A DNA stretch of 64,000 bases from Vermamoeba vermiformis (GCA_045837725.1 JBEWZL010000095.1:62001-126000); one strand, 5' to 3'. Counted from the stretch's first letter, positions 37,342-64,000 are shown. Notes: generated from the sequence alone by a model not told the origin. Made by a program: numbers and translations.

Positions 37342-39561
37342 TCAGTTCGTCTGAAGATAGAACAGCCAGGCGTTGCTGGTGCTGGTCTCAGTCGGGATGT
37401 TCACCGATGTCACGGTGTTGTTGTCGAATAGCAGCCATTCATTATCGCGCTTGCAATAGCTCACCAGACGGACTGGATCAGCCAACTTGATTGCAACGGC
37501 AAACAAACTGTACTCGTATTGACTGCGCGCGATCAGCGATTGTACGGAACATAGCAAAGGACTACTTACAACGAGACCGAGGGCGGAATGGTCACGGGCA
37601 CGTTCTTACTGTTGGTAATCAGCATCAATAACACGCGCGGACAGCGCATCATGATACGACGTCTGATTGCTTCTTGCTTGCCGCCGTCACATAGTACACT
37701 GCGGCACTCGACACTACGTGAGGCAAGTAAGAACTGTGACCCAAGAGCAAGTGACTTACCGTCGAGGCATGGGCTGCTCTTTGAAGTAGTTTGCTAAGCA
37801 CGATTCGATGTTGGCATCAATTTTCAAAATGTAGGGAAATCGTGTAATCTTGTCGCTTGCTACATTGCTGCAGTGCGTGCACGTGATATTGCTCTAGTTA
37901 CATATTAGCCTCTATACGAGCTGTTGTTATCAGGCATATCATACTTGAATCTCGGCGGCAAAGAGCCTCTTGAACGGAGACAGATTACTCAAGCTTTTCT
38001 TCTTGTAGTATTCTTCTTGTTCGCGTTCTGCTTGGCGCACAAACTCCTTCAGAAAATTCTGCGAATGTCATTAGATCAAAAGTTCATGTGTTTAAAGTCC
38101 TACCTTTGTGTTTGGTCCTGGCACCGTGAATCTATCAAGTGGTTAGTTCAAATGATCACAGACTGATGTGACTTACAATTCGACAGGGGTCTGGTCACTG
38201 CCTTCAAACAGTGCTCGAAACACTTTGGCGAGTGGTTTGCTCAAGGGCATCGCGTCATCTTCAAAGCGATTGGCCAGAAAATAATCGCGTATTTGTTCAA
38301 TCGAGTACAAGCACTGAATGACAGCATTGCCATAATAGGGAATGTTGGGATTGGCTGCGAGTCCTGTTCCTTTTTGAGCTGCAGTCGTCACTTCATTATC
38401 TTCGGGCTTATCATTGGCACTGAAGGCCACTACACTCGCATGCAATCGCTTCTGATACGTCTTTGGCAGAGAAGACCAAGCTTTGCTTTGCTCGTTGTAA
38501 ACATAACACCGGCGCTCCAAGAAGAACACGAGTGGGTCATGGAATTGCGTCCATGAGGTTATTTGCTTTGCTTGTGGATTCGGTACAGTGACGAGAATGT
38601 CATGCCACGTCACAGGTGTCTTTGTCAGTTGTCCTCCTATCGCCATGATTTTTTGTTTGCTCGTCAACACTGTCGTGGGATGCATGACACTCTCGTGTGC
38701 CACTCTGTAGCTCTCTTCAATCCACCGCTGATTTTTAATGTCTAAGCGTTCAATCGAGTCCAGAACTTTAGTGCTATCGAAATTGTCACCACCAATGACA
38801 TACGGCGTTTCTTAAATGGGTTAACAACGAGGTCTAAAGTATACTTGACTTACTATTGACAATAATGACCGAGGGGCTAGAACGCGCTTGATTCATCTTG
38901 GGCAGTTCTAGCCACGTGTTTGTGACTGGGTCGTACTTCTCTGCGCGGGGAGTGGCTCGTGTCTTGGTGACGTGATTGTACTCCAACAACACTTTGCCGC
39001 CAAACACGTATATCTCATTGTTCATCACCACTGCTGCAAAATCGAAGCGTTCTTTGTTCATTGGAGCCACACGCTCCCATTTGTCCGACGCGACATTGTA
39101 TCGCTCGACAGAATTGAGACATGTGATTTGATTGTCAATGCTTAGACCCGTTGCTTTGCCTCCAATAGCATAAAGATAGTTGCCACAGCGAATGAAGCCG
39201 TGGTTGGATCTAGCCTCGTGCATGGGCCTGACAGGTGTCCAAAATGACAGGTTTGGATCGAATCGTTCAACATGTGCTATCGAATCTTCATTTACTTCTC
39301 CACCCGACACAAATAAATAGCCTTTACTTCCCGGTAATTTGCCTTCTAACTCCTGTGATTTAAAATTAAAATCGAAAATTGCAATGGTAAAGATAAAAAA
39401 TCATCAATAAATTCGAGAGACTAACCACACTAAGTGTTATACTTAAGAGTATTATTCGGTACAATGCCGGTTTATTGAGACTTTTTTGTTACCTTGACTC
39501 GAGATCTGAGCTGCTCATTCTCAGCTGCTAATGCGCGAATTGTTTCCTCTTGAGAAGTCAT
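37342..39561 (-). CDS. Kelch-repeat protein fused to a degenerate USP (peptidase C19)-like domain
   Basis: Probable start MTSQEETIRALAAENEQLR at 39561. Kelch motifs YAIGG..VERY..W..VAPM..R and YVFGG. USP-like GLAANPNIPYYGNAVIQCL and YSLFAV...WLLFDN..V..AWLFY. Confidence 0.75.
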
Positions 39562-43599: not shown

Positions 43600-46010
43600 A
43601 ATTCTTAACAAAGCTAAGGGATTCACTGATGACAACGCTAACTGGTTGAAAGTCAAGGTAATTGTCGCGATCCGATCAGATCCAAAAAAAAAAAAATAAT
43701 AATTTATTTAATTAGGGACAAGGAGGAGACGACGATGAAGACGACGAAGGAGAAGACGACGATGAAGATAGTGATGATCAAAACTTCAAAGCTATGGTCC
43801 GCAAGTCCAAGCAGATCGAAGCTGAGAAGGCTCGCGAGGCTGAAGAAGCAGAGCTTGAACTGCAAGATGCAGCGAAACAGACCGCTAAATTTGAGTTCCC
43901 CGATGACGAGACTCTGCAGGCTGAGAGTACGTGATTGTTTGCTCGTGCTGACGATTGCTAATGATCTTTTTAACAGAGGACCAAGGCATTGACATGACTG
44001 TCGTGCGTGCTCGTATTGACGAAGTTGTGCGCATTTTGAACAACTTTGCCGAAGAGCGTGACGGCGTGCACTCGCGCAAGGAATACGTGCAGCTGTTGAA
44101 GAATGACTTGTCGTTCTACTTTGGCTACACCATGTTCTTGCTCGATCGATTCATTCAACTTTTCCCGCCCAGCGAGGTACGTGTCACATGTCACAGCTAC
44201 AGTGGCGCTGAACTAATGACTTGTGCAGCTGTTGGAGTTCTTGGAAGCCAACGAACAACCGCGTCCAGTGACCATTCGCACCAACACACTCAAGACGCGC
44301 AGAAAGGACTTGGCCCAAGCACTGATTGGTCGTGGTGCTGGTGTTGGTGCCATTGAGTGGAGTCAAGTTGGTGTTCAAGTGTTTGACAGCACCGTGCCTA
44401 TTGGTAAGTAGAACATACATTCGATACGCAGATGAGTGGTTGACACGTGTCAATTTGAAAGGTGCCACTCCTGAATACTTGGCCGGACACTACATGATTC
44501 AAAGTGCCAGTTCTTTCACACCTGTCATGGCCTTGGATCCTCAGCCCAACGAACGTATTTTGGATATGAGTGCTGCTCCTGGTGGCAAGACTACTCATAT
44601 TGGTATGTCAATCGAGCGACTAAAGTAATGTTTGACTGGTGGATCTAACTTATTCCTGCAGCTGCAATGATGAAGAACACGGGTATTTTGGTAGCAAATG
44701 ACTTGAACAAAGAGCGTTTGACTGGTCTCATCGCGAACGTGCACCGCATGGGTGTCAAGAACTGCATTGTTACCAACTATGACGGCCGTAGCTTCCCCAA
44801 GGTGATGGGTGGCTTTGATCGCATTTTGTTGGACGCACCTTGCACGGGTACTGGTATTATTGCTCGCGATCCCTCTATCAAGGTGCAAAAGTCTGAGAGT
44901 GACATTCGTGTCTGCTCGTACACTCAAAAGCACTTGTTGTTGGCTGCTATTGATTCAGTCGATGCTAACTCACAGACTGGTGGTGTTATTGTGTACAGTA
45001 CTTGCTCGATCACCGTTGAAGAGAACGAGGCTGTGGTCGATTATGTCTTGAAAAAGCGCAATGTCAAGTTAGTTGAGGCTGGTTTGCCCTTCGGTCGTCC
45101 TGGTAAGTGGAGTTACACTATATTAATTGCGCGTTGTTTGACACGTGTCATTAGGTGTCACAAAGTACTTGAGCAAGCGATTCCATCCCTCTGTCACTTT
45201 GACTCGTCGCTTCTACCCTCACGTGTACAATATGGACGGTTTCTACGTCGCCAAGTTCAAGAAGTTGAGCAATGAAATCCCTGCAGGAAAGGACGAGAAG
45301 GAAATTGACGAAAGTTTTGGTGTTGAGATTAAAGGTACGAGCAGTGTTAAAGTGATGTTCCCGTCTAACCATGCGATGTAGATAATGACGAGTATACCAA
45401 CATGAAGAAGGATACTTTGCAAAAGCCTCAAGAGACCAAGAAGCGAAAGAAGAGCGATGTAGCCAAGTCTAATGGTGTCACCAAGGCTAAAGCTACTGAG
45501 CAGATCGATCATATGGACGAAGATGAACACGAGTCTGAGCCACCAAAGAAGAAGGCCAAAGTAGCTAAAGCAGAGGCTATGGACGTTGAGCCCACTGAGT
45601 CAAAGCCCGTCAAAGAGAAGACACCTGTCAAAGAGACTGCTAGCAAGCCCGCCAAGATTGAGCAAGCAAAGACACCCGCCAAGGCCACTCCCTCCAAAGA
45701 AAAAGCTACTCCAGTCAAGGAAGCCGATGCCAAGCCAGCGAAGGAAGAGGTCAAGAAGACACCCGTGACCACACCGGCCAAGGCTACTCCCGCAAAAGAA
45801 AAGACACCCGTCAAGGAGACTGCGGAGAAAAAGACCCCTGCTAAAGAGAACGGTGAAAAGAAAACACCAGCCAAGACCCCTACTAAGGAAGCCGACAACA
45901 AACCAGCAGTGAAGACCCCTGCTAAGGACAACAAGACTCCAGTGAAACAAGACAAAACTCCTGCTAAGCCAGCCACACCGGCTTCAAATAAGAAGACGCC
46001 CAAGAAATAA
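43059..46010 (+). CDS. NOP2: Nucleolar LSU rRNA m5C methyltransferase Nop2/NSUN1
   Basis: Motifs [69 protein letters not shown] and MDGFYVAK. Confidence 0.97.
43559..43597 (+). repeat. GAC/GAT trinucleotide run encoding poly-Asp in NOP2
   Basis: Run gacgacgatgacgacgacgatgatgatgacgacgatgac. Confidence 0.8.
45618..46007 (+). repeat. TPxK peptide repeats in the NOP2 C-terminal tail
   Basis: 14 TPxK motifs counted in the translated ORF. Confidence 0.85.
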
Positions 46011-46150: not shown

Positions 46151-48716
46151 CTAGCGCTCATTGTCCGAGTCAACAATGTCGTCTTGGGCCAACACTTCTG
46201 CATTGCGCCGCATTTCATCTTTGAAATTATTTTTGATGTCTTTCACCCTCGTGGCGTGTGATGTGTGCGGTGATTGATGGCTGGACAACTCTTCGAGTGA
46301 GAATTCAAACTGATCGAGCAATGCGTTACGAGAAAAGCTTGTGTTGTAGGCTGAGTAATTTCCCATTATGTCAATGAACGACATTTGACCTAAAAGTGGA
46401 TTAATAATCGTAGAATAATTAAACCTGCACGTACTGGGCGTAAGTTTGAGTTTGTTCACCAAATGATTTCGCGGCAATTTCTTCGCCATAGGAATGTGCT
46501 CCATAATCAGTTGTTCATACGGTGCTTGAATAGCCGTGGTTGAGGTCGGTGTGAGTGACAAGTCTGAGGGCGCAAGAGGAAACAGAATTTGAACGAGTTT
46601 TTTGTTCTGTGAAGCTTGGTAGTGCAAGGGCAGAGGTTTGTACATGGACTTGAACACGTGCGTCTGAAGCGGATGTTGATTGTGATACATGAGACCGCGC
46701 GCAGCAATCAAGAGCGCATTTTGGTTGATTTGCTCGGTGATTTGTTCGTTCTGATAGCCCTCGTAGAACTGCATCAACTGATCGCCGTCACTCAGTGCCT
46801 GTGAGGCCCCAACAACGTCGTTAATGTCTGTGAAGAAGTGCAAGTAGTTCTCTTGCAAAAATCCCGCGAAGAGATTGCTCTCCACACTCATGCAGTCAAT
46901 CACGTGCTCGAGGTCCACGAGACTGGGTGGACGATAGGTTGGATCGTTATTGTTGTTCAACGCTGTGTTACTATTGGTTGAATTTTCATCGTTCACTGAA
47001 CTGGTCGTGCGATACTCGTCTAACAAATCATCACTCGAAGGATCCACTCGTCGCTTCTTAGTCACGTGTTCATCTTCAATCGTTGCATCCTCGCTCTTGG
47101 GCACATCACCTATCAACATATTTAGGTCAGGCTAATCTAAGCACACCATGTGTACGTACGTTTGTTGTAAAGAATTTTGCCGAGTGCGTGAAACAAACTC
47201 AAAGTCTGATCACGACCACTCACATTGCTCTCTTCTTCTCCGCCACTCTCGCGCTCAGCTAGCTTCCTCTTCTTGCCCTTCTTGCCTTTAGTGATGGCAG
47301 CCAAGGCGTGGTCAGGGCGATACTTTGATGAAAAGAATTGCAGGGAGTTGATGGCTGCACGAAGATCTCCTTGCGAATTGTCTGCAATGGACTTCAGTGT
47401 GTTCTTCGCGAGCATGTGGTCAATGTGCTCTTCGCGTGCTATTCGCTGCAGACATTTGACGATGTAACTCGGTGCTACTGGATTGAATCGCACCAATGAA
47501 ATCTCCCCATGAAATTCACCGCTCGTCAACAAATCACCAAAGAGTTGTGTGGCCGATACATTGCCGCCAATCGCTGTGTCGGTGATGGTCATGGCCAGAC
47601 ACGTCTTCACACGACTGCTGCGCTGATCACGCTGCAAATAGGTGCGTATTAAATTGCGGAAGTTCTCTTTGAGCTGATAGGTCTCCAATATCGGCCACTC
47701 CTCGACTGTCAACACCTTCAAGTCATTGCCGCTCTGTGTCTGATCGAGCACGTGATTGTACCGCTCGCGTGTGAGGAATGCATTGAGATCACTCAGACAG
47801 GTCTCAGCACCCGCAGCAGGCATGGCCCATCGTTCCAGTGCCACGGACATGTCGCGGCACAATGTCTCAATGGTGATGCTCTTCGCTGAGCCTGAAGGAC
47901 CGGTGATCACAAGGGCTTTGGGTCCGCGGCCTTGTTTTGCACTCTCAAACAATGCCCTCACTGCGCGCACCTTTGCCGCGTGTACTACGAGCTCATCACT
48001 GCTGCGCGGCGCGTGTTTAACAGACCACAACTCGTGCAGTACTGCGTGTGGGTTGACACTGGCCGTTGACTTTTTTTCACTCGACGTCAAATTTTTGACG
48101 CTGTACTTTGGCTTTGTATTGATCTCGTGTCGCTCTGCGTTGTTGTTGTTATATTCACTTTGTTCGTGGCTGTTCTGACGAGTTGTTGCGGGCTCTAAGC
48201 GATGTAAATGATTAGCAAGGAAGTTAAAGCAACCTCTGTCAAACCTTTAGGAGCGCGCTGTGGTGTGTCTTTAACGGATTTGTTGCTGTCATTGCTGCTG
48301 TTGAGCAGTTTGGGTGGCGTTTGAATTTGTTTGAGCTTGGAAATAATGGATGTCGTTGTGGTTCTGGGCGGTTTCGTTGGCTTTTCACTATTATTTTTAT
48401 TATCCAAAATTATTGGTTTTTCTTCTTTTTTTACTTTCGTAGGACTCGTGTGGGTTGGTCGAATTTTATTGCTATTTTTTGGAATTATTTCTGGTTCCAT
48501 CTCGATCGCGTCGTCCCACTGAACTGTGCTTGGCGTGATTTGAGGTAATTCATCTGCAGAACGTTTTTTTCTCTTGGAAATAAATTCAAATGGCTCGTCT
48601 TCTTCGTCATCGCTCGTCAGATCAATCACATCGCTTCCAGCTTTCCTTTTGACATTACTGGTGACAACACGATTGTTATCTCCCCGCTTGAATTTTGTAG
48701 CAGACGAAGTTAACAT
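46151..48716 (-). CDS. RAD17: Checkpoint clamp loader Rad17/Rad24 (AAA+)
   Basis: Motifs LWSVKHAPRSSDELVVHAAKV, ITGPSGSAKS, FNPVA, GDLRAAINSLQF, RDQTLSLFHALGKILYNKR and LQENY. Confidence 0.92.
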
Positions 48717-48825
48717 TAGTGGAATCGACGCACTCTTCTGTTGTGTTGTTGCATCTGCGCGAGTGAAATTAATTCTCGGAAACCGAAGCCAAAAATATGC
48801 GCGCAAAACAAACAGAACACAACGC

Positions 48826-50001
48826 ATGGAAGTGTTAGCCTTAGATCATTCTGGTAGACCGAAATTCCTTGAAGGAGAGGTGGAGATAACAACAGTAAGG
48901 AATGTGCATTTGAAATTTCCAGATGGCGAAGTGTTTGGCTTGATCCGGCTTACAAATTTTCGCTTGTTGGTGCAAGCTCATCATAAAAACAACAAAAATA
49001 TGGTTGCCAATTATTCGATCAATTGTGCAAATATTAAGGCAGTAGAAGCTGAGAAATCAGGATTTTTCATCCGATACACCAATATTGGTTTGACAGTCTC
49101 AGCACAAAGCGGAGATCTTAAACTACACTTAGAATTTGGAGATAACAATGTCCGAGAGCAATTTAGGGAACAATTCTTGTTAGTAATGCAAAAGAAAGCT
49201 TGGGTAAGTCGGATCTATTCTGCGCGTCATTTTGAGACTAACAACAGTCAGGAATCAACAAACAAAACTACCAAAGGCGCATTCGAAGCTAAAAGAGCAG
49301 GAGTTGCAGGTCTAGAGCGCAGTGTATTGGAGCAGCACGGACAAATATCAAATGATTTGGATCAAGCATTCAAAGATCTGCGCAGCTTGATGGACAATGC
49401 TCGCGAGATGACACTGCTCGCAAACAAATTGACAGAGCAGAACAAAGGTCAGCAGGGCGAGGAGGCCAATCAACTGCAGCGTGAGATGACTTTGCTCGGC
49501 ATCGGCTCGCCTGTCAGTCGCGATCAGATCTCAGACCCTGACGTGTACGAACGAGAGCTGAGTCGTCAAGTATACGACTATCTGATGCAAGCACATTACA
49601 CTTCAAACACACCCATCAGTCTCATCGATCTCTATTGTCTCTACAATCGTGCGCGAGGTACAGATCTGATCAGTCCTGAAGATCTGCTCCGTGCCGTGCT
49701 ACTCTTTCCGCGCCTCGCACTGCACAAGTGGAGTGTGCTGCACTTCCCTTCAGGACTCTACGCACTCGTGCCTGACACGCGCACTCAAGGCCAAGACGCG
49801 CTGACAGGTCTCGCGCAACACATCGCGCAGTTGATCGAGTCGCAAGGACCACAGACCAGCTCTCAACTCGCCACGCGTGCGCACATGTCCCTCGCCCTCA
49901 CACTGCACGCCACTGGCCACGCAGAGACATTGGGCCTCATTTGTCGCGATGAGACTGCGCAGGGTGTCGTGTGGTGGAAGAACATATTTAATTGTACATA
50001 A
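48826..50001 (+). CDS. VPS36: ESCRT-II subunit Vps36/EAP45
   Basis: GLUE-like LTNFRL, AGVAGLER, AFKDLRSLM, LGIGSPV, DLYCLYNRARGTDLISPEDL and GLICRDE. Probable 48-nt in-frame intron at 49204-49251. Confidence 0.92.
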   Translation: MEVLALDHSGRPKFLEGEVEITTVRNVHLKFPDGEVFGLIRLTNFRLLVQAHHKNNKNMVANYSINCANIKAVEAEKSGFFIRYTNIGLTVSAQSGDLKLHLEFGDNNVREQFREQFLLVMQKKAWVSRIYSARHFETNNSQESTNKTTKGAFEAKRAGVAGLERSVLEQHGQISNDLDQAFKDLRSLMDNAREMTLLANKLTEQNKGQQGEEANQLQREMTLLGIGSPVSRDQISDPDVYERELSRQVYDYLMQAHYTSNTPISLIDLYCLYNRARGTDLISPEDLLRAVLLFPRLALHKWSVLHFPSGLYALVPDTRTQGQDALTGLAQHIAQLIESQGPQTSSQLATRAHMSLALTLHATGHAETLGLICRDETAQGVVWWKNIFNCT

Positions 50002-52283: not shown

Positions 52284-55200
52284 TTATTTGAGCTGCGCGG
52301 TGAGTTTGTCCAGCTCGGCTAAAATCTCCGAATTAAATATGGCTTGATTGAACAGCTCTTGAATCAAGCGACGGTGCTTCAATCGGAACTTGTAAAATGT
52401 GACCAATCGGAACACATCCAACAAGACACGTGGGCTCTTGAACTCGTCCGCGTGACTTGCTTTGCTCTTAAGTCGCTTCAGAGCGCGGAATGACTTGTCT
52501 GCAGTCACCAAGTTTGACATCTGTGACACCAGGGTCAAGATCTCACTGCCCGCTGCACTCAGACCGCTGAGGCCAGGTGTGAATTTGAGCGGTGCGAGCA
52601 CTGTGCCGGTGACAGGTGTGTCGGCAGGCAGTGTGAACAGCTTGGTCTTGCTCACATTCACGGGCAGGGCAACGCGTGTCTCGAGGTCGTGCAAGTTAGA
52701 GGTCTCCCAGCCCAGCGACAACAACAGCTCGCGACTGGCTGACTGAGTGGTGAGTGTGCCGAGCACCATGAATGCTGTGCCGCGCAGTGAGGGACAGTCC
52801 GAGTGTTCAGCGAGATCTATCACCAGTGTCACAAAGCGTGTCAGATCCAACAACTTGCTGCCACTCTCTGAAGAGCCAATGTGCCCCAGTGCCCAGAGTG
52901 CACCGCGCTTCTTGATGGAGTCCGAGGCCACTTGCTCGCTGCTCAAGATCTGCAGCAGTTGTGCAGTGTAGCCGCCCTGGCGAATGAGTTCACAGCCCTG
53001 GTCAGTCTTGGCGAGTTCACCGAACAAGTGTGGTGGCACCAAGACCTCGCCCTCGGGATTGAAGTTGGTCGGGTCTTGCAGAATGGTGTGCGTGAGGGGC
53101 TTGGTGAGCACTGCTTGCATCTTTTTCTCGAGGGCCAGCACGTACTGATCGTTCTCGCTCTCCATCCACCGCTTCATCTGCGGGGCTACAAAGTCTATTT
53201 TTAGCAGTTTGTTCAGTCCCTTGGTGGTACTGAGCAGTCGAATCAGCAGTGACGTGCCCATGGTGCCCATGGCGACGAGTGCCTTGACGTCCACAGGGGC
53301 CGCAGGAGTGTCGAGCAGATCAATCAGCTTGTCGAGACAGGTCGTGTGATCAATGGCCTCGTCTAAGATCTGATGCACGGGAGCTCTGATCTTCACGTCT
53401 GTGTCCAGCAGCTTGGTCAGCAGCAGTTCAATGCCCCATTCACTGAATGCACGTGGCTTAGCGTGCAGTTGAGTGCGCAAATGTTTCACGGCAAAGTACT
53501 TGACGACGGTGCTGCTGCTGGCCAATATCTTGCGAATAATCTCCAGGGCCTCGTTGGTGCTCGAGGAGAGATTGGCCGCGTTGCTGTTGGTCACAGCTTG
53601 CAGCAGCGGTGTGTCGCGACTCGTGCGCGGTGTGTGCATCACGGGATCAGCTGCTTGAGGCATCGCGAGCACGGCACTGTTGTAGTCAATGTTGGTCAGC
53701 ACGAGCCGAATCAAGTCGTCGCGGCCCTCGAGCTCGCAGATCTGTTGCAGGGCCTTGAACAGCTTGTGCTTCTTGAGCACCTCTTGGCCGCGGTAGGAGC
53801 GCGTGAGTATGCCGATGAGCGAGAAGTACTCGCGACTCAGTGTCTTGAGCAGCGAATTGCGACTCAACAGCGGCTCCTCGGTGTTGCTCGGCGTGTTGGT
53901 CATGTGCGTGTGTTCTTTGAGCAGCAGCTTGTACTCGTCCTCGAACAGCTGCGCGAGACACTTCAAGAACGAGTGCTCTTGCAAGAACACGCGTCCTGCA
54001 TCGTGCTCGACCAGCACTTCCATCACCAGCTGGGCCACGCGCACGTAGATCGAGGTGTCGTTGCTGCTCGCGGAGCGCAGTTTGCTGAACAAGTGCTTCT
54101 GCGGCTTGAGGAAGGAGAGCAGGCGCTTGTACCACTTGGTCTTGAGGGCCAGCTGCAGCAGCGTGGGATTGCGCATCGGTCCCTCGAGCAACTCGTGCAC
54201 CAAGTCCCACTTCCACTTGTCGTACTCCTTGCTCGGCACCAGCGTCACTGCCGTCTCTTTGATGCGCACTAAGAACGCTGTCTCGTCCATCTGCCACTCC
54301 ATCTTGCGCTTCACTTCACTCACGCGATCCAGACGCGCGCTGGTCGAGTCACGTGGATCAGTGCCCTGTGGCAGTGTGCCACCCTTGATGTCATCCGCCC
54401 GTCCACCAATGCTGCCACGCCGTTGATGCGTGCTGGGCGAGGACAGACCCGGCCCTGGCAGTGTGGCAGGTGTGCTGGGTGCGGTGATGGAGCTGTACAA
54501 CACACTGTCGCGCGCACTCTTCAGCGAGGTCCACTTGTGCAGCACTGACACCGCGGTGAGTATTGCATTGACACATTAGCTATATATGTATATATTCATG
54601 TCACGTACCTGACACCATGCCACTGGCTCGTTCTCGATCACGCACGCGCTCGCGCTCCTCTTCCTTCTCCTCCAAGTCCTGCGCACTCTGATCAGCCTGC
54701 TCGTCACTCCACTTGGGGGCACGGAACATGATGGCACGCTGCACCAGTGTGGGCAGTTGTTGCAGTCGCGCGCAGGTGTGCGGTGAGAGCAAGCGATTGG
54801 AGAGGTGCAACAACTCGCCGAGCAGCACAGTGACCTTGGTGTAGACTGTTCTGAAGGGTGTCATGCCCGTGTACTCGTGCGTGGGTGTGGCCGCGAGCAG
54901 CGCGACTGAGGCCTGGTGTTGCAGCACTTGATTGCCGAGCAGAATGAGCTGTTCAATCAGGCCGTGCTGCACCATCACTGACAGCATGCACGCCGTGTAG
55001 TTCCACAGCAGATTCATGCGGTAGCGCGGTCGCAGTGAGGCAGCGAGGGCATCAGCGTCAGGTCCGAGTTCAGCCACGGTGCTGGTCTGCGACGGATCTG
55101 CATTGAAGCCCATCAGTCCGCCCAGTCTGCGGTCCAGGGCCTGTCCGCTGTTGAGCAGGGGGATGCGGAACACCTCGTAGAAGAGATCGAGCAGTGCGTG

Positions 55201-56572
55201 CAGCGTGTTGAGCGAGGGGTGGTGCGTGTGATTGTACGTGAGGGCGGTGATCAGCGAGGCCAGGCCCTGGGGGTGCGTGCACAGTGCCAGCAGTCCGGGC
55301 CAGTAGCGCAGCAGATAACTCACGGCACGACACGTCTCGATCCAGCCCTGCGGACAGGTGGCAGCGGCGTTGGTGGTGGTGCTGGCCTCGTTCTTGTCGC
55401 CCCCTGCACTCGGCTCCTTGTTGCTGGCGGGCTTGAAGGTCTCGCGCAGTGGATCGGTGAGGGGTGCGAGCAGTATGCCGAGGTCGAGTGCGGGGGTCAT
55501 GAGTGCTCTGGTGCGCGGATGATTCAGCCACACCAGCAGCACGGTCAGCAGCAGTTGTTGGATCGGCAAGAAGTGCGCATCCACCACTGCATTCAACACC
55601 GTGCGCACCACTCCGAGCTCACTCAGCATGTGTGGACTGCACAACATGGCTTCACCGATCAGTTCACAGCTCACCAGGGCTAGCGGATCGCGTTCCGGAC
55701 CAGTGCTGTCAACCACTGCTTGGAGTGAGGCAAATACTGCGCGGGGCAGCACGCACTCACTCGCTGGTGGCACTGTGCCATTAGGACGTGGACTCTGTGG
55801 CTTAGCAACACTGCCACTCGTGTTCAGTGCTGGGCGCGTTGGGCTGGATGTAGTGACGCGCGGACTGTTCGTTGCAGAGCCAGGACCACTGCTAGTAGTG
55901 CCGCTGAGGAGTGCGGAGTAGCTGTCGATCATCGCGCGCACGACTTTAATTGCCTCCAATCGCTCGCCTTCAGTGTCTTCACCGCGCTCGATCGAACTGA
56001 CAGCAGATTAGTGCTGGGTCGTGTATTTGACATGAATCAACGCTACTTACAATGCTATGTACTTGTCAATATTGTATTGCTCCAGCTTGGGTGTCAGTTG
56101 CGCATCTCGGATCGCAAGGTGTCGTACAGCTTTCAAACCCACGACACGATTGCTCCGCACTGGATCGACCAGAAATAATCGCAAGCTACATCATCGCGAT
56201 TAACAATGCCCAATATATGCAACCAACGCGTTACTTACACCTGCAGGAACTCATCTATTGGAAACTTGGCGTAAAAATCTTTGAGATCAAGCTTGCTGCC
56301 GAGTTTAGCCACCGTTTTAACGTGCTTGAATTTATCGCGCAGTGGCACATCTGATCGCAGGACTGATATGGCCTCTTGCAATTGTGCGGCTGTAATAGTC
56401 GTTATTAAATTGTAATAATAAGTTGAAATTTATTCTCGTCTGATCGAGAGGAATATTCAGAAATTTGCATTCATTGTAGTATATATGATGCATATGTAAT
56501 TTAAATAATATAAATTGATCATATTAATATTGTTGGTGTGATTGAGTTGTTGGATGTACCTTCGTCGCTCAT
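52284..56572 (-). CDS. RICTOR: TORC2 subunit Rictor/Pianissimo/Avo3
   Basis: Motifs ERLEAIKVVR, LLRYWPGL, KWKWDLVHELLEGP, KRLLSFLKP, WGIELLLTKL, PPHLFGELAKTDQG, ALWALGHIGS and SLRGTAF. Confidence 0.93.
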
Positions 56573-56777: not shown

Positions 56778-57852
56778 TCATTCGATCGCATTCAACTGCA
56801 GTTCGTTCACACTGCGCGAGAGTTGTTCTTCGAGGTCTAGCAGCTCTTGTTTAGCCTCTTCAATCTTCACTTGCGCTAAGGTCAGATCCTGCCCATCAAA
56901 CTGTCAATAATGGCGCGACACACTAGTATAATACTCACAGGAGGCAGTTGATGGTAGCCTTTGAGCAGACCGAGCTTGGGCGCAGTTTCTTGTTTGATCC
57001 GCACGAGTTCAGTGTGCATCTGCTTGAGACTCTGATGATACAGCTCAGGTGTGACGCCAGTGCCCTTCAACTGCTCCTTCAGCTTGCCGAGGGTCTGTTC
57101 GTACTCCTGGCTCTTGCTCTCGAGGTACTTCAAGTTCTTCAAGCGGTTTTGTACCGTGCTCAGCTGATTCGCTTGTGCCTCTTCGAGCTGCTGCAGCAAT
57201 CTAACGCAATGCGTGAGTAGGGATGCTGTGCGACTAATATACTCACTTTTTGGCGTGCGTAAAGTCTTCCAGTGCGGTCTTGCTTTGTGTTTGCAAATAG
57301 TTCAGATGTTGCTCGAGGTCAGTTTTGAAGCGGATCTGCTCTGAATGTTCACTGCGCTGCTGGTATAGGCTCGATACGAGTACTGTAAGAGTGCAGTTGT
57401 GTGCTCCGAGCTAAATACAACGTTAATTTGACTTATTAACAGCTAATTCATCCACGTACCAAGACAGTCAGATGTGCTAACAGTTCACTCAGCTCAAACA
57501 CGCGCTGATAAGGTGATTGATATGTATTGGTATTGCCAGTGGCTATTTTATCGCGCTTCAGTCCCAATCCTTCGAGCAGCTTCTCTTTTCTATTCGCTGC
57601 AATAAATCATTAATTTTAATTAGATCGCCTCTGTAACTCACCTTCATCTTGATATTCCTGGGCGAGCCTATTGTTGTTATTTATGATGATTTGTTGTTCG
57701 TGATTACGTCGCTTGTTCTTGAGTGCCAGTTCATACAAAGCAGATACAGTTTGATCGTTGATCTCAAATTCTGGCACTGCGCGGTCTTTGAACACCGTTT
57801 TCAACCAACTGGTAACTACAGTTAGTTTGCTATCATATCCAATCTCTGACAT
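56778..57852 (-). CDS. HAUS1: Augmin/HAUS complex subunit 1
   Basis: N-terminal WLKTVFKDRAVPEFEIN...EYQDE; C-terminal YHQLPP|DLTLAQVKIEEAKQEL. Confidence 0.85.
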
Positions 57853-57897
57853 GGTGCTGTGGTGTGATAAATTTAAATTAATGATCAAAGCAGAAAA

Positions 57898-57907
57898 GGC
57901 GCGAAAA
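57898..57907. promoter_or_regulatory. E2F-like site GGCGCGAAAA in the HAUS1/kinesin bidirectional promoter
   Basis: Matches TTTCGCGCC on the minus strand within the 174-bp gap between the divergent ATGs. Similar sites occur at 4438 and 25238. Confidence 0.35.
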
Positions 57908-58026
57908 ATACGGGCCCCACGCGAACATTTTCGTGTCGAACAGCGAGTCAATTCTTAGTTCACGATCAACGCGTCAAACAATAACTGTAATACAGTACCA
58001 GACCTAATGATCAGCAAGCAGTTCGG

Positions 58027-61000
58027 ATGTTGAAATTAGATGGGCTCTCAAGTCAAGACTCCGCAGTGCGTGTCGTGCTGCGGTTTCGACCAACTGAAAA
58101 ATCAAGTTCAAATTTTTTAAAAATAGACAAAGACAAGCAAACAGTGCACATCAGCACCGAACTACCAGCTACGGTAAAAGTCAGTCGGGATCTGCCGATA
58201 ATTTTCATTATTTTTTTAAAATCACTCAAAATTAATCGATCCCTACATAGCGATTCAATTACTTTAAAAACTAATATTATTTTATTTTAAGACTCACTCG
58301 CGACGTCATTCGATAAGCACCACTACCAAAACTGATTTTCATCGTTTTGTATTTGACCGTGTATTCGCAGAGACCGCTACACAAGAAGAAGTACGCATCG
58401 CACATATACAATAAGACTAGGCAGGACACTAACAGTACTGTTGACAGGTGTACAATGAAACTGCCGCGCCCCTCGTGGATGGTGAGTGACACGCAAGACA
58501 TTTCTTGAGACCAGCGACTAATAGCAGGCCATTCATATAGACATCCTGCGCGGATTCAATGCGACTATATTCGCGTACGGCCAGACAGGGTCAGGCAAGA
58601 CGTACACTATGCAAGGCCCCTCGATCGAGGACCCCGCGCACCAAGGTCTGTGTCCGCGCCTGATCACACATCTGTTTGATCGCATTGAAGAGATGAAGAC
58701 CAACAAGGACGTCGAGCTCATATTGAAAGTGAACTGCATTGAGATCTATCAAGAGCGCATCAACGACCTCTTGGATCGCACGCGTGAAAATTTAAGGCTG
58801 CGTCACCACCAAACACGCGGCTTTTACGTGGAGAAGTGTTCGGAGATCTACGTGAACAGTGCGCGCGATGTGATTGAGCTGATGAAGCGTGGATTTGGCA
58901 ACAGACGCACGGCCTCGACGAACATGAATGCCGAGAGCAGTCGCAGTCACAGCATCTTCATCCTGCACCTGACGCAGCAGCACTTGAACAAAGAGATCAA
59001 CAGTCGACTCATTTTGATTGACTTGGCTGGCTCTGAAAAGGTAGGCAATTTTCTGTGCAGACTTATCTTTGCAATCATTTTTCGTTGGTGGCACGCTTGT
59101 TCACTGAACGACGTGTCATCTGTATGTAACTCGTAGTATACACCGCTTAGAGGACGATACTGACGTGAGTTTTTTGCGATGGTTATATTTATTACTATAA
59201 ACAGGTGAGCAAAACAGGCGCTGAAGGCCAAACACTGGAGGAGGCCAAGACGATCAACAAGTCGCTCCTCACCCTCGGCAACGTCATCAACGCGCTCACT
59301 GAAAAGAATGTACGTGCGAGTCACTGAATGACACCTGTCACTCGAATCACGTGATCTCATTGGTTGTTTGTCACAGACCTTTGTGCCCTACAGAGACAGT
59401 GCGCTGACCTTGCTGTTGAAAGAGTCGCTCGGTGGTAACTCCAAGACGACGCTGATCGTGAACTGTTCGATGGACGCGTACAATGCCAGCGAGACACTCA
59501 ACACGATGCGATTCGGTCAGCGCGCCAAGCGTATTGAGAACAAGCCCAAGATCAACATGGAACAGACTGTCGGCGAACTCAAGCAGCAACTGGAAGCCGT
59601 GCAGCACGAGTACAGGTCTGTATTTGACACGTGTCACTCCCCGAGTGCATCGACTGACAGGTTGACAGTGCACTGCTGCTCCACAACAGAATTCTGTCGC
59701 TGCTGTCACTCACCAGGGCTGAGTTCACACCGCGCGAGCACGTGATTCACTGGCCAATCGAGGACTCGGCGGAGAGAACACGTGATCCACGCCCTAGTGC
59801 CACTGTCAGTCACGTGCTCGAGATGCCAATGCCGCCCTGGGCACCGGTCTCGTGGCCCGCGACACCACGTGGCCCTGTCACACCACGTAATGAGCCTGAG
59901 CCAGTGTCTATTATTCCGCCGGACTTGTCACGAGTTATTCCGCCACCACTTGTGATTGGTGCGCTATCAAAGAGCACGTTCGGTGAAGAGAGAGATGTCA
60001 AAGTGCGACCTCCGCAGATCAGTGCTGCAAATCCGTTCAATCCACCAGGGCTCTCTGCTGCCATGTGGAACGATCACGTGACATTCGACGATACACCCAA
60101 TGCCACGTGGCAGGATCTTCGAGAGCAGCCAGATCGAGAATTCAATTCTCCGACAGCAGTGCCAGCACAGATCACGTGTCAAGCACCGCCAATGATGCAG
60201 TTTGAGGAAGAAGTGACTGAACCCGAAGAGGATCTAAAAATAGTGCTAGAACGACGCAACAGTTCGCTAAAAAAGGAAATGGAATCTTTGCAACGAAACA
60301 AGTCGAAAGAGGCCGAAGAATTGCAGGCAAAATTGACAGAACAGCAAAGACTGGTCGAAGAGTTGCAAAAGCAATTACTCTCCGCACGGAGATCTCGTTC
60401 ACTGATTGGCCACGTGATCTACAACGCTTTGCTCGTGGTCTTGGTGGCACTTGTGTTCGCAGCTGGCGTGTATCTCGCGCCAAATATAGATCCTTCGCTC
60501 ACCTCGTGCAGTGACACGTCACGTGTGTTTAGTTACGACATCTACTTTGACACATTGGGTCTGACACCTTCAGCCTCAAGTCACGTGGTCAAACAGCGGT
60601 ATCGAGAGCTCTTGCTGCAACTGTAAGCTATTTTTAGCCCCCACGTGCTCTTCTAACATGTCTTGTTTAGACATCCGGACAAAAATCCGCACTGCGATGA
60701 CGCGTGTCATAATCAACTTCACAACGTGAAATTTTCCTATGACGTGCTGTCACTCGCAAAGTTTCCCAAAGATAGCATTGATGACAAGGCTGTGGAATGT
60801 CAATGTGCCACCTGTCCTGAAGTCCAATGTCCGGAGGCTGTTAAGTGTCCCGAACCCGTCACGTGTCAATGTCCGACTCCCGCGGAGTGCCCCTCAACGA
60901 CCTCTACGGAGTGTCACTGTCCACAACTCACATGTCCTGATCCTGTCACGTGTCAATGTCCGGAGTCTGTTAAGTGCCCTGAACCAGTCGCGTGTCAATG

Positions 61001-62264
61001 TCCGACTCCTACCGAGTGTCAATGTCCAGCCCCCGTGGATTGCGACAAGTCACGTGAAGAGTCCCTGGCAGAGCTAAATATAGTGCTGCGCGAGTCACTT
61101 GAAAGCTGTCAACGTCAAGTCAAGCACTGTCAAGAACAGCTCATTCATGAACAAAGTGTCGTACGTGACTTGGAGCTAAAAATAGAACAGTTCCAGCCCA
61201 CCGTCGTGGTGGTGCAAGAATCTCGTCCGGAGATCGCAGTGCCCGACTGGAAAGAAGACAGTTCGCTGCAGTGGATGTTGGAAGAGGAGAAGAAGAAGCA
61301 GCTCGGACTGATCACCACGCACTACCACTTCACGTACTGGCACACTGCCACCGAGCACTCGGACAGACTCGATCACCTCGCTGCTGGACTCAACGACGCA
61401 CTGAAAGTGAACGCTGAGTTCCATTCACGAATGCGAGCGAGTGACGGAGAAGACGCGGAGATGACTGCCAAATATGGCATTAACGCTGACCAGCCGTACG
61501 TGGTGGCTGAGACAACCATAACGATCGTGTCACGTGACGATGAACAGCAGCAACAAATGAAGACTGTCATGACTTTCCCTGGGCCGTTCTCCGACCAAAC
61601 ATTCCAGCAATTATTGCACAATTTCCTTAATTGGCAAGCATCGGAACATATCCTGCTCGGAGATTTCGATACATTGCCATGTTTGTCCACAGGAGCACGT
61701 GCTCAGCAGTACTGCGTGATCATGATGGCAGACACTATGTCGCGCAGCAGTTTTGATCTGGGCTCGCGCATCTTGAAGTACTTGGAACTCACTTCGCAAT
61801 TCACTGAACGAAGTGTCAATCTGCCACCCGACGTCGAGTTTGCATTCCGTCTCATTGACACAGGCCGCAAAGAGAGTCTCTACGACCACATGTCCCGCGA
61901 TCTCGAGCTCGTGTCCAATGCACACATGCAGCTGCATCACCAGCTGATTGTAGTCTCGCTGCACACGGCACAGTTCTGGCAGTACGATCGACCACTCACC
62001 TTCCAGCGTGCCACCGACTACCCGGCACTGCGCACGTGGTTCAACAAGATTGTGCGCGCGATTGAGCGGGGACAAGACGAGGACAGTGCTGACAAATCGG
62101 AGCGAGTGCCCGCAGAGCCCGCGAAGGTAGATCTGGCGCTGATCGAGTACACACGCCGTCGTCACTCGCCTGTGAGCACAGTGGTCTCGTACGGTGTGAC
62201 GATAGGCCTCGCAGTCAACTTCTTGTTGCGCCTCACTCGCCGTGCCCTGCAATTGCTGGGCTAA
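58027..62264 (+). CDS. N-terminal kinesin motor fused to coiled coil, TM helix, J-domain (HPD), Cys-rich repeats and a DNAJC16-like region
   Basis: Motor motifs [26 protein letters not shown] and [14 protein letters not shown]. In-phase splices EYS(AG|gtctgt..acag|T) and L|HPD(CT|gtaagc..ttag|A) give one continuous frame. Confidence 0.75.
60796..61046 (+). repeat. Cys-Pro-rich peptide repeats (CPEPVTCQC-like) within the kinesin fusion
   Basis: Recurring tgtcaatgtccg and aagtg(t/c)cc.gaacc units; translation [21 protein letters not shown]...[23 protein letters not shown]. Confidence 0.85.
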
Positions 62265-62363: not shown

Positions 62364-64000
62364 CTACTTGGAGGATGAGGATGAAGAGGAAGATGACGAG
62401 GAGCTCTCTTCGTCCTTGGTGTGCGTGCTCTGTGCGTGGCCATTGCTCTCCGCGTGCACTTCAGTCTTGAGCTCGGTGGTGACGGGCACAGCTGGCTGGA
62501 CTGCACTCTTGTCCTCTTTGTCGCTCTTCTTGTCCTCAGTCTGGGCCTGTGCGTGGTGCTTGTGTTCAGCGACACTCTCGGCCTTGACGTCACTCGTCAC
62601 AGCCTCGCTGCTCTGTTTGACCTCGCTGCTCTGTTTGACCTCGCTGCTCTGTTTTATCTCGCTCTTCACTTCAGCACTCACGGGGACTGCAGGACTGGCA
62701 CTCTTCTTGTCTTTCTTGTCCTTCTTGTCTTTCTTCTTCACCTCGCGCACGGACTCGCGCTTCTCTTTCTTCTCGGCAGCGTCCACTTTGACTTCAGCTT
62801 TCTTCTCTTCCTTGCTCTCTTTGTCTTTCTTCTTCACCTCGCGCACCGACTCGCGCTTGTCTTTGCGCGGTGAGGCCACGCTGTCGTCTTTCTTCTCCTC
62901 GCTCTTCTTGTCCTTCTTCTTCACTTCACGCACGGACTCGCGCTTCTCTTTGCGCGGTGACTTGCTCTCTTTGTCCTTCACTTCCAAGGTCGCGTCTTGT
63001 TTCACAGCGGCCTCCGTCTTGGCCTCGGTGCTCTTTGTCTCCTTCTTGCTCTTGCTCTTGGGACTCTTGGCACTCTTCTTGTCTTGCTCCTCGTCGCTCT
63101 TGTTCAGCTTGTCAGTCTTGCCTGCAGGACGCGGACTCAGCACTTTGGGCTCCTTCTTGCTCGTGCTGGTGCTGGGCACTGCAGCCACAGACATGGCACG
63201 TGCGCGCGTGCTGTTGTCCTCCTCCGACCACTCCTCCGAGCTGATCGAGTCGCGCTCGTTGGCTGGACGCGTGGGATCGTGCACCAACTTGCGCAACATG
63301 AAGTAGCGGAATCGCTTGGCGTAGTAGTCAGCGCGCACCGTGGAGAGTGTGGCCTCGTCCCAGACTATCTTCTTGAGCAGATTGGCGACCTTCTTCTTGA
63401 GCACGTAGGAGGTGAGGCAGTCGATGATGCCGATGAAGTAGATCTCTTGCTTCTGATCGCTCGGATTCGTGCCCACAAAGCCACCGAGCTCAAACACGTC
63501 TTGCACTGGCGCTGCGGTCTCTTTTTTGGGCTCGTCGTGCGCGGTGTTGTCCGTCTTCGCGTCCTCTTGCTTGCTGGCATCTTTCTTGCTGGCATCTTTC
63601 TTGGCCTCGTTGTCGCTCTTCTTCTCGTCACTCTGCTTGTCCTCTGGCTTCTTGTCCTCAGTCTGAGCAGCATCCTTCTTGTCGTCTGCTTTCTTGTCGT
63701 CGTCTTTCTTGTCGCTCGCGGAGCTCGAGGACGAAGAGGACGAAGAGGAGCTGGATGAACTGCGTGACTTGGTGACAGCTGTCTCGCTCTTGACTTGATT
63801 GGTGTTGTTGGGCTGTTCTGCGCTCGATGTGCTCGAGTGGTGCGTGGCTTCAGGGGACTGCTTGGACGCGTCCTTGGTGCTGTTGTCCTTATGATTGCTG
63901 TCCTTATGATTGCCGTCCTTAGTGTCGTGCACTTGGCGCTCCTGATCCGTGACGTAGTGCACACCGACCAGCAGCGAGTAGTCCATCACGTTGTGCTTCA
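62364..64000 (-). CDS. Phosphatidylinositol-phosphate kinase (PIPK) C-terminal part; gene starts beyond the right edge
   Basis: Motifs MDYSLLVGVH, YFIGIIDCLTSY..KKKVAN and LSTV...YAKRF; Lys/Glu/Ser-rich insert and tail. Confidence 0.92.
   Translation of the reverse strand, partial: KHNVMDYSLLVGVHYVTDQERQVHDTKDGNHKDSNHKDNSTKDASKQSPEATHHSSTSSAEQPNNTNQVKSETAVTKSRSSSSSSSSSSSSSSASDKKDDDKKADDKKDAAQTEDKKPEDKQSDEKKSDNEAKKDASKKDASKQEDAKTDNTAHDEPKKETAAPVQDVFELGGFVGTNPSDQKQEIYFIGIIDCLTSYVLKKKVANLLKKIVWDEATLSTVRADYYAKRFRYFMLRKLVHDPTRPANERDSISSEEWSEEDNSTRARAMSVAAVPSTSTSKKEPKVLSPRPAGKTDKLNKSDEEQDKKSAKSPKSKSKKETKSTEAKTEAAVKQDATLEVKDKESKSPRKEKRESVREVKKKDKKSEEKKDDSVASPRKDKRESVREVKKKDKESKEEKKAEVKVDAAEKKEKRESVREVKKKDKKDKKDKKSASPAVPVSAEVKSEIKQSSEVKQSSEVKQSSEAVTSDVKAESVAEHKHHAQAQTEDKKSDKEDKSAVQPAVPVTTELKTEVHAESNGHAQSTHTKDEESSSSSSSSSSSSK
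62603..62955 (-). repeat. Coding tandem repeats in the PIPK tail
   Basis: An 18-bp unit (EVKQSS) occurs about three times near 62603-62664. K(E/D)KRESVREVKKKDK occurs three times. Confidence 0.8.

Follow-up and report, generated by a model that had tools for sequence, protein, structure and literature searches.

Can a single polypeptide serve as microtubule motor, membrane-spanning protein and luminal J-protein at the same time? The usual view is that motors attach to organelles via adaptors and that luminal chaperones do not sense the cytoskeleton. The question is raised by a gene at positions 58027–62264 (+ strand) of a stretch of 64,000 nucleotides from Vermamoeba vermiformis (GCA_045837725.1 JBEWZL010000095.1:62001-126000), which as a whole is called the window here. 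A first-pass annotation, made from the sequence alone, had read this gene in one hand-spliced frame as a transmembrane kinesin with a putative luminal J-domain and a C-terminal region reminiscent of DNAJC16. The explanation which accounts best for our results, with a probability of roughly 0.6, is an integral membrane kinesin of the endoplasmic reticulum (ER), carrying a J-domain and a thioredoxin-like module on the luminal side.

The gene consists of eight exons (Table 1), and joining them gives 3678 nt, an uninterrupted frame of 1225 codons closed by a stop codon. RNA evidence was taken from the contigs of two public runs, X1 and X2, mapped on the window; since these contigs carry spliced GT..AG joints, they are transcript assemblies. 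Joints of this kind were present for five of the seven introns (1, 2, 3, 5 and 7). As one X1 contig spans 57986–58179, the 5' untranslated region begins at or upstream of 57986. The two introns delimited in the first-pass annotation, 59616–59668 (53 nt) and 60623–60670 (48 nt, interrupting the J-domain), have exactly these limits, end in GT..AG and keep the frame. RNA bears out the second of them, the joint 60622>60671 being present in one X1 contig whose shorter side measures 59 letters. Concerning the first, an X2 contig matches 59665–59812 beginning at contig letter 8, which fits the joint 59615|59669, the last four letters of the exon being identical to those of the intron. Together with contigs over 59799–59949 and 59977–60190 and an X1 contig over 60009–60495 it tiles 59665–60495, that is, the linker, the coil and the helix. 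Raw RNA reads (X21 and X23) came from a relative, being all 95–99% alike, and with 7 and 31 reads were too few for joints. At intron 1 one X1 contig shows the variant joint 58179>58295 with three other letters between the two sides, and the related protein P0249 (see below) has one additional residue at the same junction; this reflects either an alternative acceptor or an allelic difference. The transcribed 5' leader also holds an upstream open reading frame (ORF) of eight codons (58007–58033, +), which overlaps the start codon at 58027 in a different frame.

The same gene is found in L001, a 10.9-kb metagenome contig, with matching exons between matching neighbours and with canonical ends at introns 2–7. 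Exon identity to L001 amounts to 73–91%, compared with 44–65% and indels in the introns. Exon 7 (954 nt) aligns at 77% identity without a single gap, and its ratio of nonsynonymous to synonymous substitution rates (dN/dS) is 0.17. For the Pro-rich linker, dN/dS is 0.23 and 0.30 in the kinesin frame but rises to 1.46 and 1.92 when the two remaining frames are read; evidently, the linker evolves as coding sequence in the kinesin frame only. As the joined frame is kept open under purifying selection in the orthologous contig, the architecture is beyond chance.

Full-length relatives were also found among public proteins. A word search for longer relatives of exon 8 among proteins of 929–2650 residues returned none; the full-length relatives surfaced through the 90% cluster of the best relative, P0001. 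Two of the 22 cluster members, P0249 and P0250, are 1213 residues long and come from contigs of 6272 and 6182 nt, whereas members on contigs of 481–490 kb are exon-sized (222 and 409 residues), so that the 1213-residue proteins most simply derive from spliced templates. P0249 is 87.3% identical to our hand splice over 1209 aligned residues and agrees with it at all seven junctions, one of them differing by one residue. In this unsplit chain Pfam recognises both Kinesin (E 1.3e-108, profile positions 22–327) and DnaJ (E 2.1e-9). The single frame of the first-pass annotation is thus borne out by the absence of internal stops, by the junctions of P0249 and by the selection on the linker, and the assembly misjoin which it had named as a possible refutation is excluded by the independent contig L001 and the independent public proteins. 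With spliced RNA, the orthologous locus, selection and the public full-length proteins all in support, we regard it as very probable that kinesin, helix and J-domain belong to one gene and one protein. In a profile-free search of 1.84 billion representatives the relatives form two clusters at 50% identity, with environmental or transcriptome sources; given this narrow set, the protein is probably a lineage-specific invention rather than a missed universal component.

The kinesin motor is intact, as the first-pass annotation had stated. Exon 4 (E 1e-58, profile positions 69–239), exon 5 (E 2e-9, 237–272) and exon 6 (E 6.5e-19, 273–327) cover positions 69–327 of the Pfam Kinesin profile contiguously; exon 2 matches weakly (positions 27–57, E 0.063) and exon 1 alone has no Pfam match. 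The motifs of the P-loop (GQTGSGKT, aa 109), switch I (SSRSH, aa 228) and switch II (DLAGSE, aa 256) occur once each. Among Protein Data Bank (PDB) sequences exon 4 is closest to the kinesin heavy chain 1goj (6e-45). For P0249 the best 26 chains are all kinesin-1 or kinesin-1 chimeras (336–281 bits, 1goj with 336), followed by the kinesin-2 KIF3B (259 bits), a ranking confined to solved chains rather than a phylogeny. The match of P0249 to 1goj, a Neurospora kinesin, extends across the neck linker. The N-terminal motor with its intact nucleotide motifs and its closest PDB chains thus resembles the kinesin-1 heavy chain (KIF5/KHC). Kinesin-1 has a long coiled-coil stalk and a C-terminal tail with light-chain and cargo binding and an IAK autoinhibitory motif, and it attaches to the ER and to nuclei via adaptors, without a membrane span of its own. 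The protein described here has neither the long stalk nor the cargo tail; instead, its Pro-rich linker leads into a coil of ~70 residues and then into a membrane helix, and no IAK motif occurs in its 1225 residues. Among the 120 listed kinesins most similar to the motor exon, precomputed Pfam annotation shows no DnaJ. The top matches of the motor exon to longer proteins (P0004, P0005, P0006 and P0023) were rejected as orthologues, since two motors inflate their scores and they have no J-domain; these oomycete proteins (Aphanomyces, Achlya) of 1235–1627 residues each contain two complete kinesin motors with two P-loops.

Downstream of the motor, the neck coil straddles intron 6 and the Pro-rich linker extends to about aa 548. 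It is followed by the coil, as anticipated in the first-pass annotation; a crude heptad scan flags aa 586–628, and the stalk as a whole (aa ~549–620) gave weak matches to coiled-coil families and has a dN/dS of 0.07. Next to the coil lies the hydrophobic helix, which the first-pass annotation had placed correctly and which is the top hydropathy peak of the entire protein, with a Kyte-Doolittle value of 2.62 over 19 residues (aa 626–644). It also provides the sole clearly negative 19-residue windows on a Hessa-type insertion scale (six overlapping, aa 622–648, lowest −1.07), the membrane span being judged from hydropathy scales. The helix (aa 621–650), with ~22 uncharged residues, is 85% identical in L001. 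Its N side is Arg-rich (RRSR, unchanged in L001) and its C side acidic or neutral, and the RRSR motif fits the Arg-based ER-retention pattern. A hydrophobic span of bilayer length together with a positive cytosolic flank constitutes the feature set of an internal signal-anchor. Because the motor must meet microtubules it would face the cytosol, and one strong span with a positive N-flank would place all downstream residues on the far side. Of the 31 Cys residues, 5 fall in the 620 residues before the helix and 26 in the 545 residues beyond, a distribution which agrees with an oxidising compartment on that side. Judged by these sequence features, a membrane span with a luminal C-terminal part is probable. 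N-glycosylation sequons do not occur in the luminal part of the window protein or of its L001 counterpart, which is uninformative as only ~1.7 would be expected from 13 Asn.

The J-domain begins ~18 residues past the helix. The HPD tripeptide, which in J-domains lies between helices II and III, occurs once (aa 696–698) and is kept in the window, in L001 and in P0249. Split by the intron, its two halves score 19.1 bits (N half, profile positions 2–27) and 14.2 bits (C half, 29–55) against a cut-off of 27.8 bits, whereas the unsplit domain of P0249 (residues 671–724) reaches 37.8 bits; the J-domain recognised in the first-pass annotation is consequently real. Profile score and HPD both fit the J-domain proteins of class C (type III). 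Its N half, with a dN/dS of 0.02, is the most constrained stretch of exon 7. A C-x3-C pair directly follows the HPD (60681–60701, aa 699–705 region) and is likewise kept in the window, in L001 and in P0249; to our knowledge such a pair is not usual among J-domains, and it could form a disulfide in an oxidising lumen. The Cys-rich repeats noted earlier contain most of the Cys residues beyond the helix and vary in length, with gap runs of 27 and 24 nt relative to L001 and of 6 and 8 residues relative to P0249. The second coil, too, was found where it had been expected, the crude heptad scan flagging aa 842–870, and the coil-like stretch as a whole (aa ~822–880) is 90% identical to P0249.

The ~290 residues after the second coil, in which the KYGI...P and YCVIMM stretches of the first-pass annotation were located, are lineage-restricted and conserved across the four available sequences. 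A HMMER search with the C-terminal region against the 1.84 billion representatives gave three proteins at E <= 0.001: a bacterial protein with Cys-Pro repeats, and two relatives which are 84% and 64% identical. In an AlphaFold2 (AF2) model of the last 342 residues, built on the four-sequence alignment, the predicted local distance difference test score (pLDDT) rises to 55–75 over aa 908–1018, where the predicted secondary structure follows the order beta-alpha-beta-alpha-beta-beta-alpha. When aa 908–1024 of the model were compared with 48,161 chains by VIA-align, the best 50 rows were nearly all thioredoxin-fold. The best matches were redox-inactive domains of the ER lumen, with ERp27 first (Z 8.1, root-mean-square deviation 3.5, 93 aligned residues) and calsequestrin (7.5), PDILT b' (7.2), ERp57 bb' (7.1) and PDI b' (6.6) further down; the thioredoxin-like domain of Grx3 (7.9) was also among the matches. 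The weak Foldseek rows are mostly PDI, ERp57, calsequestrin, ERp72 and ERdj5 (5ayk, E 4.8e-3). Furthermore, a Q-P pair (Q86, P87) before the third strand is invariant in all four sequences, presumably at the site where thioredoxin folds carry their cis-proline. With modest confidence, aa 908–1024 thus models as a thioredoxin fold. A CXXC redox site was not found in this domain, as Cys is absent between aa 849 and 1031 and the sole C-x-x-C lies at aa 740 within the repeats; if the fold assignment is right, the domain would be of the redox-inactive kind. Two groups of matches were discarded: Pfam rows on the C-terminal domains for BrxB (E 0.021–0.22) and IL28A (0.1), which are sub-threshold and unrelated, and the only matches of a C-terminal profile to PDB sequences, ~40 residues of the HSP90 N-domain (E 0.36–1.2), which were treated as chance. 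The latter sit at 61440–61560 (aa ~952–990) inside the thioredoxin-like domain, and HSP90 is a chaperone as well.

The following domain, aa 1025–1170, is the most conserved part of the C-terminal region, with long invariant runs in all four sequences. Its best VIA-align match (SRP14, Z 5.4) does not allow a fold call. Its closest thioredoxin clusters in a language-model Atlas (0.84–0.86) are leads only, and long weak Foldseek alignments reach proteins with tandem thioredoxin domains. A second thioredoxin-like domain is accordingly offered here as an idea, based on the predicted strand and helix order, the weak Foldseek rows and the Atlas leads. For the C-terminal 342 residues as a whole, the Atlas returned a Thioredoxin_6 cluster (0.91) and DNAJC16 clusters (0.87 and 0.84), again as leads only. 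Past this domain, the weak C-terminal hydrophobic segment described in the first-pass annotation reaches a Kyte-Doolittle value of 1.73 at aa 1196–1214 and is near-invariant in the four sequences.

The DNAJC16 hunch of the first-pass annotation consequently stands as a likeness in fold and in Atlas neighbours, for which no family membership was found at the sequence level. According to its published description, the ER protein ERdj8/DNAJC16 is a type 1 membrane protein in which a signal peptide is followed by a DnaJ domain, a thioredoxin-like domain and a single transmembrane span (PMC7401821). The human protein and its C. elegans counterpart dnj-8 would share with the protein described here the order of leader, nearby J-domain, thioredoxin-like part and C-terminal span (PMC7401821). 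The part order of DNAJC16 is matched provided that the C-terminal helix, of marginal hydrophobicity, truly spans the membrane, the leader here being internal and placed behind the kinesin. DNAJC16 differs in lacking a motor and in having a cleaved signal peptide rather than an internal span, and we know of no Cys-Pro repeats or luminal coil in it. In the Pfam searches made here no similarity was detected at the sequence level. Homology to DNAJC16 proper, as opposed to likeness, is a tentative proposal that we rate below even odds. ERdj5/DNAJC10 similarly combines a luminal J-domain with thioredoxin-fold domains; it is soluble and has active CXXC sites, whereas the protein described here has no Cys at the active-site position. 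The likeness to the b and b' domains of the PDI family (ERp27, PDILT, ERp57, PDI) and to calsequestrin is a fold match only, from a modest model.

Taken together, these parts suggest the following arrangement. The cytosolic side would comprise the kinesin-1-like motor, the neck coil, the Pro-rich linker and the coiled-coil stalk. The helix at aa 621–650 would act as an internal signal-anchor, and the ~545 residues that follow it would be translocated into the ER lumen, as a hydrophilic domain of this size crosses a membrane co-translationally only at the ER, by the Sec61 route. A conserved HPD J-domain on the luminal side points to BiP; held ~18 residues from the membrane, it would recruit BiP and stimulate its ATPase. 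Past the J-domain there would be a disulfide-rich Cys-Pro stalk, the coil, a redox-inactive thioredoxin-fold domain of the PDI b/b' type (such domains bind clients in other proteins) and the second conserved domain, and the weakly hydrophobic C-terminal helix may re-enter the membrane. The motor, if dimeric, would pull ER or nuclear-envelope membrane to microtubule plus ends without an adaptor, and the BiP-recruiting, possibly client-binding luminal module would travel with it. Since the luminal parts follow the same order as in ERdj8/DNAJC16, the simplest origin would be a fusion of a kinesin gene ahead of a DNAJC16-like J-protein gene, in which the former signal peptide turned into a membrane span. 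ER residence and a BiP partnership are, in our estimation, somewhat better supported than an even chance.

Several observations weigh against this explanation. At the RNA level, introns 4 (59041–59204) and 6 (59616–59668), the latter being the first of the two introns of the first-pass annotation, have no listed joint in the contigs of the window species; coverage is zero at 58848–59175, and the overhang at 59665 is just 7 letters. Intron 4 is thus absent from the RNA coverage but matches a junction of P0249. In the X2 contigs the depth is 4.8–13.6 over exon 8 versus 0–3.6 over the kinesin exons, contig depth being a poor measure according to a warning of the tool used; an extra shorter transcript would fit this pattern. 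Both AF2 models are of low confidence (pLDDT 44.5 for the last 342 residues and 47.3 for aa 1025–1170), VIA-align Z values of 7–8 fall within the range that the tool calls common, and Foldseek gave no row at E <= 0.001. No Pfam thioredoxin or DNAJC16 match was obtained at E <= 10 with the C-terminal domains, whole or in pieces, in a Pfam copy that may not include the DNAJC16 families named by the Atlas (PF26968, PF26973 and PF26976 of Pfam 38.1). Finally, the C-terminal helix is marginal, with a sum of +2.9 on the Hessa-type scale, and an ER signal of the KDEL or KKXX type was not seen at the C-terminus.

Among other explanations, a role at the nuclear envelope holds up best, and is a special case of ER insertion. 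The protein would reside in the outer nuclear membrane, comparable to a KASH protein that carries its own motor, and would serve the positioning of nucleus or centrosome, or nuclear congression and fusion, which would need a kinesin, luminal BiP and J-proteins. ER J-proteins and BiP do act in nuclear fusion, the Cys-Pro stalk and coil could span the luminal gap, and the gene lies head-to-head with the one for HAUS1, an augmin subunit, an arrangement that is kept in L001; gene neighbours are, however, weak evidence for a shared function. Dictyostelium Kif9, the sole membrane-anchored kinesin that was found in the open-access literature, couples the nuclear envelope to the centrosome according to a 2025 review (PMC11816917). 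Kif9 is a depolymerising kinesin-13, unlike the presumably plus-end-directed, kinesin-1-like motor seen here. Moreover, a SUN-binding, KASH-like C-terminus is not apparent in the tail of 8 residues past the last helix, for which no comparison with KASH was made. We consider this role unlikely.

Still less probable is a cargo anchor beyond the ER, in which the protein would be inserted at the ER and then reside on Golgi-derived vesicles, endolysosomes or the plasma membrane, the J-domain serving its own biogenesis only or being a relic of the fusion. Such an anchor would account for the missing canonical C-terminal retrieval signal, and post-ER and extracellular domains often have disulfide-rich stalks. 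Against this, the strong constraint on the N half of the J-domain and the retention of its HPD argue for a working Hsp70 partner, which in the secretory pathway is the ER-resident BiP, and the RRSR motif beside the helix, identical in L001, matches the Arg-based ER-retention pattern.

It is very improbable that kinesin and J-protein are mainly made as two products, through an internal promoter, early polyadenylation or alternative splicing, with the long frame as a minor read-through. The higher X2 depth over exon 8 would be expected then, an alternative acceptor at 59660/59661 would close the kinesin frame at 59745 (ORF 59332–59745), and a single RNA contig joining motor and J-domain was not seen in the window species. 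On the other hand, purifying selection on the linker is seen in the fused frame only, no indel occurs in the 954 nt of exon 7, the two public 1213-residue chains hold motor, helix, J-domain and C-terminal domains together, and the X2 contig from 59665 fits the acceptor at 59669. A stand-alone J-protein starting within exon 7 would have to use the helix as its signal; such a short form may exist in addition, but the long form would remain. Equally improbable is a wholly cytosolic protein bringing cytosolic Hsp70 to kinesin, with the hydrophobic stretch buried or peripheral, since the span, judged from hydropathy scales, has ~22 uncharged residues of top hydropathy and an Arg cluster at its flank, Cys residues are unequally distributed across it (26 versus 5), and the nearest C-terminal fold or feature matches are ER-luminal (ERp27, PDI b', ERp57, calsequestrin and DNAJC16).

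The membrane kinesin with luminal chaperone modules, which we prefer, can be compared with several known systems. In Sec63/ERdj2 and ERdj1/DNAJC1 a J-domain is held near the ER membrane on its luminal side. KASH proteins which recruit kinesin-1 link this motor to a membrane belonging to the ER system, as outlined in the same review (PMC11816917). Compared by description, all of these differ in that motor and membrane protein are separate polypeptides and that no J-domain takes part in the attachment of the motor. Closest in its principle is Kif9, which is anchored in the nuclear envelope, an ER-continuous membrane, by its own transmembrane helix, 'a rather unique feature' in the words of the review. 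Kif9 belongs to kinesin-13, has its motor in the interior of the chain, is anchored by ~23 residues at the C-terminus and lacks a luminal domain (PMC11816917), whereas the present protein has an N-terminal kinesin-1-like motor and ~575 residues past the span, including the J-domain. Judged from titles and the beginnings of abstracts, no kinesin with a J-domain was found in searches of the open-access literature, in keeping with the unfamiliarity of the architecture remarked upon in the first-pass annotation. It is a new domain architecture made from known modules and so far confined to a narrow lineage.

Table 1 Features of the gene and other genes recognised in the window (positions counted from the first nucleotide of the window; aa, residues of the spliced protein)
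Feature	Position	Strand	Residues and remarks
Exon 1	58027-58179	+	aa 1-51; start codon and motor N-terminus; joint 58179>58292 GT..AG in X1, X2
Exon 2	58292-58390	+	aa 52-84; joints 58179>58292 and 58390>58448 in X1, X2
Exon 3	58448-58481	+	aa 85-95; joints 58390>58448 (X1, X2) and 58480>58540 with cut +1 (X1)
Exon 4	58541-59040	+	kinesin motor core: P-loop (58579-58602), switch I, switch II
Exon 5	59205-59309	+	motor continuation; joint 59309>59377 in X1, X2
Exon 6	59377-59615	+	motor end, neck linker, start of neck coil
Exon 7	59669-60622	+	954 nt; rest of neck coil, Pro-rich linker, coil, helix, N half of J-domain
Exon 8	60671-62264	+	C half of J-domain through C-terminus; stop codon 62262-62264
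Pro-rich linker and rest of neck coil	59669-60190	+	aa 377 to ~550; no gap or stop relative to L001
Cytosolic coiled-coil stalk (predicted)	60183-60398	+	aa ~549-620; ends with RRSR beside helix
Transmembrane helix 1 (predicted)	60399-60488, core 60414-60479	+	aa 621-650; from hydropathy
J-domain	60540-60752	+	aa 668-722; interrupted by intron 60623-60670; HPD 60672-60680
Cys-Pro repeats	60798-61043	+	aa 738-819; 19 Cys, mostly C-P-x-P-x-x units
Second luminal coil-like stretch (predicted)	61050-61226	+	aa ~822-880; two Cys; from heptad scan
Putative thioredoxin-like fold domain without CXXC	61308-61658	+	aa 908-1024; from fold model
Conserved alpha/beta domain	61659-62096	+	aa 1025-1170; two invariant Cys
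C-terminal hydrophobic helix	62169-62237	+	aa 1195-1217; possible second span, 8 residues before stop
DTW	3064-3831	+	
Catalase fragment	20940-21482	-	
RCC1	24064-24753	-	
Kelch	38173-39400	-	
Nop2 methyltransferase	44649-45275	+	
Rad17-like	47137-48246	-	
Vps36	48544-50001	+	
RICTOR	52284-56007	-	

The gene is flanked by two neighbours that are also present in L001. Upstream lies the gene of HAUS1 (augmin subunit 1; 56882–57954, − strand; Pfam 9e-20 and 1e-17 on two exons), which is divergent from the kinesin gene with ~170 nt between the start codons; both genes are microtubule-related and may share a promoter. Downstream, tail to tail at a distance of ~100 nt, follows a PIP5K-like gene (62364–64000, − strand; Pfam 1.2e-17), whose C-terminal extension is long, rich in Lys, Glu and Ser, and includes several repeats that are almost identical. 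Of the more distant genes, the Nop2 fragment is 93% identical to a metagenome protein and equally close (64–74% identity) to proteins of Capsaspora, fungi, cnidarians and amoebozoans.

A further peculiarity of the locus is the palindromic hexamer CACGTG, the commonest hexamer of the exons of the kinesin gene. It occurs 19 times in the gene (4.48 per kb versus 0.82 in the remainder of the window) and 14 times in the L001 orthologue (3.35 versus 0.74 per kb), where the cluster extends over 7202–9438 of L001. For the entire window base composition predicts 12.1 copies, whereas 68 were counted. The 16 exonic copies are all located in exons 7 and 8 (59739–62038), in the coding part beyond the motor, and occupy all three codon phases; nine of them are kept at the aligned place in L001, compared with a hexamer background of 22–27% (P 0.003–0.014). 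The cluster possibly represents intragenic E-box/G-box sites, an internal regulatory element or a codon or residue bias.

A more far-reaching idea, to which we give only a small chance, is that the protein acts as a mechanical and chaperone coupler spanning the ER membrane, the luminal BiP cycle and the cytosolic motor regulating each other through a single chain. For example, BiP bound via the J-domain and the thioredoxin-like client site could keep the luminal domains in a state which silences or unclusters the motor. By analogy with IRE1 and PERK, which are activated by the release of BiP, a load of unfolded proteins would then titrate BiP off, and the ER would spread along microtubules; conversely, tension exerted by the motor would bring BiP recruitment to the tips of growing ER tubules. 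If true, this would be an adaptor-free and transcription-independent link of ER folding load to ER shape.

Apart from such regulation, a natural protein that unites kinesin motor, membrane anchor and luminal J-domain in one chain would be a compact and testable case of microtubule transport coupled directly to ER proteostasis. After Dictyostelium Kif9, the protein would represent a second type of self-anchored kinesin, and it would illustrate how a gene fusion can convert a signal peptide to a membrane span. It would furthermore provide a minimal tool for studying the effects of a motor that pulls on the ER membrane without adaptors.

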